A stretch of 64,000 bases of DNA, taken from NCBI GenBank assembly GCA_963664705.1, contig OY761556.1, positions 6,240,001 through 6,304,000 of the forward strand. Reading direction: 5' to 3'. The notes under the pieces were generated by a model, which saw only the letters and a list, made by a program, of their open reading frames with translations, was not told the origin of the DNA and did not search any database. This document shows positions 51,301 to 55,963 of the stretch, piece by piece (position 1 is the stretch's first letter; each line of letters starts with the position of its first letter). This DNA comes from Acidobacteriota bacterium. Its GTDB lineage: Bacteria > Acidobacteriota > UBA6911. Position numbers and translations under genes: made by a program.

Positions 51301-51329
51301 TTGACAAAAACTTCCGCTGTTAACACAAT
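51301..51329 (+). promoter_or_regulatory. Sigma70-type promoter
   Basis: TTGACA-N17-CACAAT, about 40 nt before the structured RNA at 51368. Confidence 0.6.
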
Positions 51330-51367
51330 TTATTTAATGTTGAATTAGCTGCTATTCAATAGACGTT

Positions 51368-51423
51368 CCGGGTCCTGAAGGATATTCCTCAGGAGGCATT
51401 TGCGGTTGGTCGGGCCGCCATCC
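51368..51423 (+). ncRNA. Riboswitch-like element copy 1 (nhaA-I / Li+-Na+ class-like)
   Basis: CCGGG-TCCTGA...TCAGGA-GGCATTTGC-GGTTGGTCGGGCCGCCATCC; second copy at 54063 has a compensatory stem change. Class assigned from recalled consensus only. Confidence 0.72.
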
Positions 51424-51730
51424 GAAGAATCATTCATTGCTTAGGGAATCGGTTATTTCATTGAATGACGATTCTGGTATTACCAAAATGATTTCTACGG
51501 ATGGTTTTCATCTCGGATATGACAGGCACTGCAGATTTGTTAAGCGATTCCCCTCGCGCGTCCATTTCTGCATATGCTTTCAATCTCAATGCTGGCTGTG
51601 AGATCACCCTCCCCCATCTGGTCAGAAATCTGAGCCTTCCATTTAAGCCTGTTTATGTACCGTCTGAATTGTCGATTTTCGAGGCAAATCAACCCGTGCC
51701 GTTGCATTGATTGTCTATTCGGAGTTGACG

Positions 51731-54118: not shown

Positions 54119-54391
54119 AGAATAGCTTCTCGGACGGAGAAGTTCCATGGATGGCCAATTGGCACCTCACCGGTGGTACCAGGATTCGAAATTACCGATT
54201 CATCCGGCTGGTTTCATCCTTTTTCGCATCATCGTTCGGGATAAAGTTGCACGCCTTACCACATGCCTAAGAAGTTCCAGTCTTAAGCTACTTCTTCGTA
54301 AGATTAACCAAATCCTTTTTCAGCCAGGCCAAAATATCGGTTTACGGTGGCCTCTTTTGCATGGAGGCAGTGATCCGTATAGGAGGTTGGT

Positions 54392-54565
54392 ATGTCAGTA
54401 GACAAAATGGTTGTTATCGTACTGGCAGCATTGTTTTTCGGCGGCGTACTTCTCCTCGTGTTAAAGAACCGTCAAAGCAAGGGGGAGGAGGTTCCGCCCT
54501 CATCCGTTCCGGCCAGCCCTGAAAAAGATGAAACTGTTTCGCCGTCGCGAGCGAAATCCAAATAG
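54392..54565 (+). CDS. Small single-pass membrane protein, 57 aa (not in the ORF track)
   Basis: AGGAGG-N5-ATG; MSVDKMVVIVLAALFFGGVLLLVLKNRQSKGEEVPPSSVPASPEKDETVSPSRAKSK; directly upstream of the antiporter. Confidence 0.75.
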   Translation: MSVDKMVVIVLAALFFGGVLLLVLKNRQSKGEEVPPSSVPASPEKDETVSPSRAKSK

Positions 54566-54607
54566 GTAGTGCCGGCAGCGAAAATAGTCCTTGCCTGGAG
54601 AGAGTTT

Positions 54608-55963
54608 GTGACACTAAACCGCATATTGCTGCTGACATTTTTCTCCGCCCTTTTTGGCTGTGAGAAGGCCGTTGCTTCCGATGCATCCGGGCATTCCGAT
54701 CCAATCGCCCCGGCTCTTCTTGCAATCTTCGTTGTGCTGCTTGCGGCGAAACTGGGAGGCGAGCTCTTTGAGCGGCTGTCCATGCCTGCCGTACTGGGCG
54801 AGCTTATCGCAGGAATAGTTTTGGGTAATATCGTCCTGGTCAATCCCTCCTGGGATTTTCTGGAGCCCCTGCGCGCGACTCCTATCCAGGCAAACTGGGC
54901 TTTGATTGTAGATAGCCTTGCCCGGCTTGGAGTGATCATTCTTCTCTTCGAGGTTGGGCTCGAGTCGACAGTGGGAGGCATGATGAAGGTCGGGAAGTCC
55001 GCCCTTCTTGTTGCCGTGCTGGGTGTAATCGCGCCCTTCATCCTCGGATACGCGGCTAGTTGGATATTCATAAAGGAACTTCCATCCGCACTTGCGGAAA
55101 CCGTGCCTGGACTCAGCCTAAGCTATGTTCATTTATTTATGGGTGCAGTCCTCTGTGCCACCAGTGTCGGAATTACGGCCAGGGTATTTAAGGATCTGGG
55201 CAAGCTCCAGACAAATGAGGCTCAGATAATTCTCGGTGCCGCTGTTATAGATGACGTGCTCGGGCTTGTAATTCTTGCGGTTGTATCGGGTATCGTCTCC
55301 GCGGCGGAATCAGGTCGGGCTCTGGATATAGGTTCAGTCCTTCGCCTGGTAGGAGTGGCCGTACTTTTCCTTGGCGGATCATTGGGTATTGGCGGATTCC
55401 TCGTCCCGAGAATTATGGGACAACTCGCAAAATTGCGAACAGGCGGGATGATGATTGTCTCCGCGTTGTTGTTCTGTTTAGGGATGGCCTATTTAGCAGA
55501 TTGGGTGGGGCTGGCTCCAATCGTCGGTGCCTTTGCCGCCGGTCTGCTTCTTGAGGAAGTTCATTTTCGCAAATTCCGCGAGGACATTGAAATCGAGCAC
55601 CTCATTCAGCCTATCTCCGCTTTTCTCGTGCCCATCTTTTTTGTGCTAATGGGCATTCAGGTCCACCTGGAAACGTTTGCTCAGCTCTCAGTTCTTGGAG
55701 TCGCGGCGGGACTGACTTTCGCCGCGGTTGTTGGAAAGCAGATCTGCGCCCTTGGAGTACTGCAGCGCGGAGTCAGCAGACTGAGTGTGGGCGTTGGAAT
55801 GATTCCACGAGGTGAAGTGGGCCTGATCTTCGCTGGTGCCGGAAGGCTTTTGAAAGTGATCGATGATGCAACCTTTTCAGCCGTAGTGATAATGGTGATT
55901 GTTACCACCCTGATCACACCACCTTTGCTGAAGCTGACGCTTGCACGTCGAACCCGAAGCTAA
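54608..55963 (+). CDS. Cation:proton antiporter (CPA2, NapA/KefB-like)
   Basis: 'PAVLGELIAG', 'LLFEVGLES', 'ATSVGITARV', 'AAVIDDVLG', 'GMIPRGEVGLIFA'. Start GTG 54608 (RBS GGAGAG) or 54569. Confidence 0.93.
   Translation: MTLNRILLLTFFSALFGCEKAVASDASGHSDPIAPALLAIFVVLLAAKLGGELFERLSMPAVLGELIAGIVLGNIVLVNPSWDFLEPLRATPIQANWALIVDSLARLGVIILLFEVGLESTVGGMMKVGKSALLVAVLGVIAPFILGYAASWIFIKELPSALAETVPGLSLSYVHLFMGAVLCATSVGITARVFKDLGKLQTNEAQIILGAAVIDDVLGLVILAVVSGIVSAAESGRALDIGSVLRLVGVAVLFLGGSLGIGGFLVPRIMGQLAKLRTGGMMIVSALLFCLGMAYLADWVGLAPIVGAFAAGLLLEEVHFRKFREDIEIEHLIQPISAFLVPIFFVLMGIQVHLETFAQLSVLGVAAGLTFAAVVGKQICALGVLQRGVSRLSVGVGMIPRGEVGLIFAGAGRLLKVIDDATFSAVVIMVIVTTLITPPLLKLTLARRTRS

Follow-up and report, generated by a model that had tools for sequence, protein, structure and literature searches.

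Two nhaA-I-class aptamers of an Acidobacteriota bacterium as candidate ON switches acting through a long leader open reading frame

Introduction

The window analysed here, a stretch of 64,000 nucleotides from an Acidobacteriota bacterium of the UBA6911 lineage (assembly GCA_963664705.1, contig OY761556.1, positions 6,240,001 to 6,304,000 of the forward strand), carries between its positions 51301 and 55963 two copies of a small structured RNA, located in the 5' leaders of an otsA-like gene (copy 1) and of an antiporter unit (copy 2). The question raised by this locus is how an ion-sensing aptamer could act on a gene that starts about 300 nt further downstream. The answer favoured here, with a probability of roughly 0.6, is that these RNAs are nhaA-I ON switches freeing the start codon of a leader open reading frame (ORF) whose own sequence is unconstrained and whose translation would hand ribosomes to the next gene.

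The nhaA-I motif corresponds to Rfam family RF03057 (Weinberg 2017, PMC5737381) and has been validated as the Li+-I riboswitch (White 2022, PMC9646797; these and the articles below are cited from their accessible text). In the latter work otsA follows 16 of 944 nhaA-I representatives, and it is left open whether these sense Li+ or Na+. The aptamer class and its otsA link are already in print and are not new here, while the expression platform was not found described for the class in the literature searched.

Results and discussion

Identity and copy number of the aptamers

The two 56-nt elements were found where a preliminary description, made from the sequence alone, had placed them (51368-51423 and 54063-54118). 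They are identical at 46 of 56 positions, and the compensatory change noted in their first stem, A-U against G-C, is present in the sequence. Their assignment to nhaA-I proved correct: when the Rfam search that had been proposed for nhaA-I, nhaA-II and DUF1646 was run, only nhaA-I matched both elements, with scores of 47.4 bits for copy 1 (51370-51423, plus strand) and 47.3 bits for copy 2 (54065-54118, plus strand, same subtype), above the RF03057 gathering score of 37 bits, and with both aptamers spanning model positions 1-55. Neither nhaA-II (Li+-II) nor DUF1646 (Na+-I) gave a match at E<=10 in 50400-56300. A new RNA motif is ruled out by these scores. A repeat present in many copies genome-wide had also been considered beforehand; RF03057 matches the genome twice, with 150 of the 842 first-look candidates put to scoring; allowing up to two mismatches, the 20-nt aptamer core is present twice, and a third occurrence appears when up to three are allowed. 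A dispersed repeat is thereby ruled out. Both elements are thus, as judged from sequence, alkali-cation riboswitch aptamers of the nhaA-I class. In copy 1, stem P1 is closed by C-G, a U occupies the position equivalent to 54 and P2 contains a U.U mismatch.

Predicted competition between P2 and a downstream helix

For the lineage, 27 copies of the leader were assembled, 12 of them from 7 of the 51 genomes of the family and 15 from metagenomes (loci and genomes are designated by L and G numbers). A pyrimidine mismatch in P2 was present in all 22 aligned copies and in both window copies, copy 2 lying outside the alignment, and the 3' strand of P2 pairs better with an arm located 30-90 nt downstream, which holds an AUG. 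In the predicted OFF-state helix of copy 1 (51417-51505, plus strand), P2 3' strand 51417-51424 pairs with 51498-51505; together with a second helix and an inner hairpin that extend it, this pairing covers the leader AUGs at 51488 and 51501 (z-score -3.9, 0/200 shuffles). The predicted OFF-state hairpin of copy 2 (54112-54155, plus strand) pairs 54112-54119 with 54148-54155 and covers the Shine-Dalgarno (SD) sequence of the leader ORF at 54136-54139 and part of its AUG at 54147 (z -5.1, 0/200 shuffles).

In the alignment, 81.6% of the cells of the anti-P2 helix are paired and 7 of its 17 pairs show changes on both sides, with pair 59:146 being AU in 7 copies and GC in 7. Measured by paired cells, the whole structure surpasses 500/500 shuffles and every slid control, and its helix core was recovered independently by RNAalifold. 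Unconstrained folding gave P2 a probability of at most 0.04 in 24 of 25 copies; once P2 was forced, exposure of the AUG increased by at least 0.05 in 25 of 29 starts. Taken together, covariation and folding establish the competing helix as a predicted structure.

The leaders that follow the aptamers are long, as described earlier, with 307 nt for copy 1 and 273 nt for copy 2, and the guess of an unusual expression platform, which is supported, can now be made specific as an anti-P2 helix combined with a leader ORF. An intrinsic terminator as the platform is ruled out, since none was called in either leader. The anti-P2 arm has no U tract in copy 2, and that of copy 1 has just a short one, preceded by a long loop.

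The leader frame in the lineage

Frame counts were based on the 17 of 27 leaders that reach the gene of a small membrane protein. The frame set by the start codon of the arm is free of stops in 16 of these 17, compared with 0 and 1 for the other sense frames and 0, 1 and 1 for the antisense frames; the antisense frames being closed, an antisense gene is ruled out as the cause of the open frame. Ten dissimilar representatives (L135, not the broken L136, standing for its cluster) contain 0 stops in the leader frame versus 50 in the two other frames, with p about 2e-9, a value that is overstated, as are all p-values of the leader frame, because the leaders share ancestry. The genome background for such an open frame is 13/264.

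Across spacings of 74-335 nt, the leader stop is found -10 to +22 nt from the start of the next gene, and the leader ORF and that gene are always in different frames. In 12 of 17 cases the small gene has NTA as its third codon, compared with about 7% of L/I/V-before-D codons genome-wide; this codon supplies the usual stop of the leader ORF, although N-terminal codon bias may contribute to the excess. Leader ORFs range from 27 to 115 codons, mostly 77-115, and their ratio of nonsynonymous to synonymous change (pN/pS) is 0.71-0.89 in five of six pairs, versus 0.18-0.66 for the small protein. These comparisons indicate selection for an open frame ending at the next start and a leader peptide whose sequence is not conserved.

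The remaining 10 of the 27 leaders are copy 1 of the window, L143, three that are open at a contig end (L146, L152, L154), three before other genes (L133, L138, L157) and two that are too short (L148, L150). In L143 the leader is open but its stop and the small gene are both lost: codon 3 of the small gene is itself a stop, and the leader ORF, without its usual stop at this point, runs to 180 codons. The small protein was found by search in 17 of 51 genomes, with 12 new loci, two of which fit the pattern and are both cut by a contig end (L199, with 75 open codons and an end at +14, and L198, by eye). Of its homologs that lack an aptamer, 9 of 10 are without a long coupled frame. A general rule of coupled leader ORFs was not found outside the lineage, where the 33 loci listed gave scattered cases only (L020, L047, L117, L162, L180).

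Leader ORFs of the two window copies

The leader ORF of copy 2 (54147-54401, plus strand, 84 codons, no family) has its SD and AUG (54136-54149) inside the OFF hairpin and ends 10 nt into the small gene. This layout of a coupled upstream ORF, with the start in the switching helix and the stop abutting the next start, is shared by copy 2 and 15 more of the 17 leaders. In copy 1, the frame homologous to that of the relatives (51488-51601, plus strand) has 37 codons and stops 129 nt short of otsA, and a second leader ORF in the +1 frame (51501-51710, plus strand, 69 codons) stops 20 nt before the otsA ATG, its stop overlapping an in-frame TTG and lying within a hairpin predicted to cover the otsA SD (z -1.9). 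Contigs argue against an assembly frameshift in this leader: those of two runs of one sample, which may be the source of this DNA, span 51200-54700 without difference, and an exact match to 51377-51636 comes from a run of another study. Copy 2 and its relatives make a strong case for a coupled leader ORF; that of copy 1 is weaker, coupling of its second AUG to otsA being suggestive only.

It could be argued that copy 1 is a recent duplicate that came to lie before otsA with an uncoupled leader, leaving copy 2 as the only working switch. This is rather unlikely. The early closure of the homologous frame, as in L133 and L138, would agree with it, as would the C at the first position of the copy-1 -10 box, the rarity of the sensor-type otsA (described below), found in 3 of the order's 51 genomes, and an otsA without an aptamer of its own in G017. 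Against this, the aptamer, the anti-P2 helix (z -3.9) and the -35 box of copy 1 are intact, the second AUG in the same helix leads into a frame that ends at otsA inside the SD hairpin, and the otsA of G017 lies downstream of the same switch.

Proposed mechanism

In the proposed mechanism, the mismatch-weakened P2 would, without the ion, lose its 3' strand to the downstream arm, and the resulting helix, which is predicted and supported by covariation, would cover the leader AUG. With the ion bound, P2 would hold and the leader AUG would open. A ribosome would then cross the leader of 270-310 nt, stop at the next start and either re-initiate or melt the SD hairpin, and ribosome cover of the C-rich leader against Rho may add to the effect. 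The signal would more likely be a rise in Na+, or broadly in Na+/Li+, than in Li+ alone, and the output would consist of the small membrane protein, a NapA-like antiporter and a membrane-anchored trehalose-6-phosphate synthase.

The same gated leader ORF might instead have a mainly transcriptional output, an untranslated leader exposing Rho sites, or the hairpin and U tract of copy 2, and leading to early termination. For this an open frame is the sole need; C outnumbers G in 16 of 17 leaders, two Rho_N matches are present in the genome, and a weak hairpin followed by U5 lies at 54181-54224, inside the copy-2 leader ORF (z -2.4). However, that hairpin was not called as a terminator, the whole leaders of the window are almost without C/G skew (70/65 and 65/64), and the position of the stop at the next start, never in frame with it, is left unexplained by this alternative alone, which is considered unlikely.

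Several observations weigh against ribosome handover from a gated leader ORF. On forcing P2, only 11 of 29 starts showed a higher mean exposure of the wider initiation region; many leader AUGs have a weak SD or none, and the hairpins lying over the downstream SDs do not reach significance (z -1.9 and -1.05). To the shared ancestry of the leaders are added a pN/pS of 0.36 in the sixth pair, the frame of L136, broken by a 1-nt insertion next to a small gene that is also frameshifted, and the early closure of L133, L138 and L157. The homologous frame of copy 1 ends after 37 codons, the contigs showing no indel, and otsA is reached only from the second AUG, an outcome that could arise by chance (null about 0.05 per frame).

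Aptamer subtype and ligand

The Na+-II variant is marked by C54 and a terminator, and the corresponding C54U mutant, M4, gave responses to Li+, to Na+ and also to NH4+ (PMC9646797). Compared with the wild-type and M4 templates, both window copies have U54, a base found in 22/22 aligned lineage copies, for which the search patterns required U. Both close P1 with C-G, as does the Na+-II RNA, while the P1 base is G-C or G-U/A, never C-G, in 3/3 tested Li+-I RNAs; the C-G base is taken as a class mark from the tested RNAs and the Rfam consensus, and in the accessible text the authors do not state it as defining. The core of both copies is consequently the combination of M4 (C-G P1 and U54), with different stems and linker, and neither C54 nor an intrinsic terminator overlapping P2, the marks of Na+-II, is present in either copy.

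A pattern scan of GTDB for the C-G type returned at least 120 matches. Fifty-nine of those listed, picked by stem pairing together with some doubtful ones, were sent to Rfam, where 47 passed, and downstream genes were tallied at 31 loci with 1-3 kb of flank among the matches listed, which is the scope of all counts out of 31. Osmolyte synthases are downstream at 12 of the 31 (6 OtsA-like and 6 GpgS-like), and the other genes comprise 2 MscS, 1 sugar ABC transporter, 5 CPA2 or CitMHS-type transporters and one DUF1646 at a locus also counted under OtsA; NhaA or PF07399 follows at 0 of 31. Because a terminator overlaps P2 at 15 of 31 loci, many of them outside Deltaproteobacteria, but C54 is found at only 3, the published Na+-II marks do not travel together. 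At 16 control loci found with the Rfam model in Proteobacteria, the C-G pair occurs in none, NhaA follows 5 and PF07399 follows 11, at aptamer-to-gene distances of 15-62 nt. Fifteen of these controls come from a single family (15 of 71 genomes), the other being L161, and since the remaining pattern searches for control aptamers gave 1 of 251 genomes each class-wide and 1 of 71 in one family, the control set rests on one other family.

Because the C-G subtype precedes osmolyte synthases at 12 of 31 loci and NhaA at none, Na+ or osmotic sensing is likelier than Li+-only sensing, and a Na+ or broad Na+/Li+ ligand is regarded as quite probable. This is countered by U54 in both copies, the published mark of Li+-I, by the confounding of the gene tally by phylogeny (15 of 16 controls from one family) and by a G-C type aptamer ahead of a similar antiporter in G042. 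NapA-type antiporters transport Li+, which counts in favour of ordinary Li+-I riboswitches serving lithium detoxification, with Li+ alone as the ligand and a platform that may stand as described; this alternative is held to be improbable. It also draws on U54, on the lack of the terminator that PMC9646797 ties to Na+-II, and on Li+ control of otsA, which the same article offers as one option. The P1 base of the tested Li+-I RNAs does not agree with it, however, the only tested RNA that combines C-G with U54 also answers to Na+ and NH4+, and osmolyte synthases, MscS and the sugar ABC transporter dominate after the C-G subtype.

Finally, it is highly improbable that the leader ORF encodes a genuine peptide that evolves fast, or a stalling sensor, and is no more than the operon's first gene. 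Its openness in 16 of 17 leaders at mostly 77-115 codons, the pN/pS of 0.36 in one pair and a loose Cys/Asp/Arg similarity close to the N-terminus speak for this reading; against it stand the absence of a Pfam family, near-neutral change in five of six pairs, lengths varying from 27 to 115 codons and a compensated +1/-1 shift that separates L131 from L142.

Other nhaA-I loci were noted in the course of the scan. U54 aptamers with a terminator occur in L018, L035, L040, L045, L054, L055, L059, L061 and L078, in Nitrospirota, Elusimicrobiota, Omnitrophota and FCPU426; terminators are described as confined to Deltaproteobacteria (PMC9646797). Glucosyl-3-phosphoglycerate synthase-like genes follow nhaA-I mostly in Verrucomicrobiota (L023, L026, L047, L058, L060, L071, L115, L117), and the gene list in the accessible text of the same article names only a 'putative glycosyl transferase' and no such synthase. 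Tandem aptamers, triple and double, were seen at L102:301-594, L041:3001-3160 and L107:297-452, tandems having already been reported. A fluoride riboswitch is located 1.5 kb upstream of a C54 nhaA-I aptamer (L069:1492-1552), and a 141-aa protein without Pfam family is the first gene after the aptamers of L011, L028, L041, L070 and L107, which belong to Coriobacteriia, Anaeromyxobacter and one deltaproteobacterium.

Promoters and downstream genes

The promoter readings of the preliminary description hold for both copies. A consensus scan gave copy 1 a predicted sigma-70 promoter, TTGACA-17-CACAAT (51301-51329, plus strand), whereas the predicted extended -10 promoter of copy 2 (54037-54045, plus strand), which has no -35 box, was read from the sequence and not called by that scan. 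A TTGACA-17-(-10) site lies upstream of 24 of the 27 lineage copies, and copy 2 is one of the three without a -35 box; its extended -10 is 19 nt ahead of the aptamer, near the spacing of 18-22 nt in 8 of 24 relatives.

The gene after copy 1 had been called a trehalose synthase. The gene stands; its identity does not, the product being a trehalose-6-phosphate synthase-like protein of the GT20 family with a membrane sensor-like N-terminus (51731-53965, plus strand, 744 aa; PF00982, E 8e-116), predicted as transmembrane segment, Cache-like domain, transmembrane segment and helical extension. Its best GT20 equivalogs are OtsA and OtsAB, both below their cut-offs (TIGR02400, 413 bits for a cut-off of 564.85). 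It aligns, motifs included, with solved trehalose-6-phosphate synthases (5JIJ, E 2e-76), and its first 250 residues resemble the membrane and extracellular sensor fold of WalK (E 9e-8, model pLDDT, a predicted confidence score, 75). A second GT20 gene elsewhere in the genome is fused to a phosphatase. OtsA-like synthases with such an N-terminal WalK-like membrane sensor follow the C-G riboswitch subtype in several phyla (window 51731-52510, L018, L054, L059; further L075, L078, L087, L189), and a literature search for otsA fused to a HAMP domain found nothing.

As for the antiporter unit described after copy 2, the antiporter is confirmed, but it is NapA-like and not NhaA, and the first gene encodes a 57-aa single-pass membrane protein (54392-54565, plus strand), which is the conserved first gene after the aptamer in the lineage. 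This small protein belongs to no Pfam family (best FixQ, E 0.002, in 3 of 8 members) and has no Atlas match above 0.82. Since its aptamer-less homologs (L204, L205, L208) adjoin, by eye, an OtsAB-like gene, an MpgP-like gene or a CPA antiporter, a salt-stress role of its own is suggested. The NapA-like CPA cation/H+ antiporter (54608-55963, plus strand; PF00999), whose start was inferred from homologs and whose longest ORF begins at 54569, aligns with PDB 5BZ2 (E 1e-57) and retains the IDD and PRGE motifs.

The earlier suggestion that ion export is coupled to compatible-solute synthesis gains support from the same-genus genome G017, which has both under one aptamer, in the one-strand order aptamer, small protein, antiporter, short membrane ORF, otsA (frameshifted or truncated) and otsB-like gene. 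With all of them on one strand after one aptamer, G017 thus offers a second arrangement in which these genes come under the switch. The window locus itself is flanked by a CusCBA/CzcCBA-like heavy-metal efflux set (44075-50321, minus strand, by eye) and by an extracytoplasmic function (ECF) sigma factor with a likely anti-sigma factor and a MotA-like protein (56097-58575, minus strand), and no link was found between the riboswitch locus and these genes.

Significance

It is conceivable, though on balance somewhat doubtful, that this Acidobacteriota family uses a throwaway frame of about 100 codons as its platform and that the C-G subtype is a broad Na+/osmotic class, spread over at least 7 phyla, controlling trehalose and glucosylglycerate synthesis. 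If true, the frame would be under selection solely for staying open and for ending at the next gene, and the subtype would be far wider than the rare deltaproteobacterial Na+-II variant. A frame that is selected to be open yet free in sequence would be a feature missed by annotation and conservation screens. Non-terminator control by nhaA-I has so far only been speculated, and the locus offers a concrete platform and, in the P1 closing pair, a single-base-pair candidate marker of ion preference. A published Azorhizobium reporter holds, by eye, a 28-codon leader ORF with start-stop overlap; because of this ORF, the coupling mechanism could be tested in an existing strain.

Comparison with known systems

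In the literature searched, which excluded subscription journals and the supplements of Weinberg 2017, nothing closer in platform or subtype was found than the systems compared here. The Li+-I or nhaA-I riboswitches (PMC9646797) have the same two-stem aptamer, P2 loop, U54 and association with antiporters and otsA. The RNAs described here are set apart from them by the C-G closure of P1, the fixed P2 mismatch and the NapA-like antiporter downstream, and their leader of about 300 nt compares with 15-62 nt at the 16 control nhaA-I loci. For other members the accessible text speculates on direct control of the ribosome-binding site and does not mention upstream ORFs or coupling. The Na+-II RNA (the Desulfobulbus propionicus 'hypo' variant of the same article) shares the C-G P1 base and the ON logic, with a P2 3' strand that has a competing downstream partner; here, on the other hand, position 54 is U and not C, there is no intrinsic terminator and the host is not a deltaproteobacterium.

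The Na+-I riboswitch (DUF1646 motif; White 2022, PMC9337991) has a similar two-stem layout and links to antiporters and osmolytes, but the window RNAs have no Rfam match to it at E<=10 and differ from the tested RNA in P1 base and P2 loop. The SAM-II riboswitch of Sinorhizobium meliloti metA (S-adenosylmethionine class II; Scheuer 2022, PMC9373788) likewise acts on translation at a distance, through an in-frame second AUG 74 nt away and with no separate out-of-frame leader ORF. The Mycobacterium tuberculosis ppe2 B12 riboswitch gates uPPE2, which is needed for downstream expression via termination-reinitiation (Kipkorir 2024, PMC11260477), and it resembles the present proposal, drawn here from sequence comparison, in that a leader ORF coupled to the next gene has its translation governed by a riboswitch. 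That system is an OFF switch for another ligand, with an AUGA overlap and experimental evidence in one organism, whereas the Acidobacteriota leaders are predicted to be ON switches, with overlaps of -10 to +22 nt and comparative evidence across a family.

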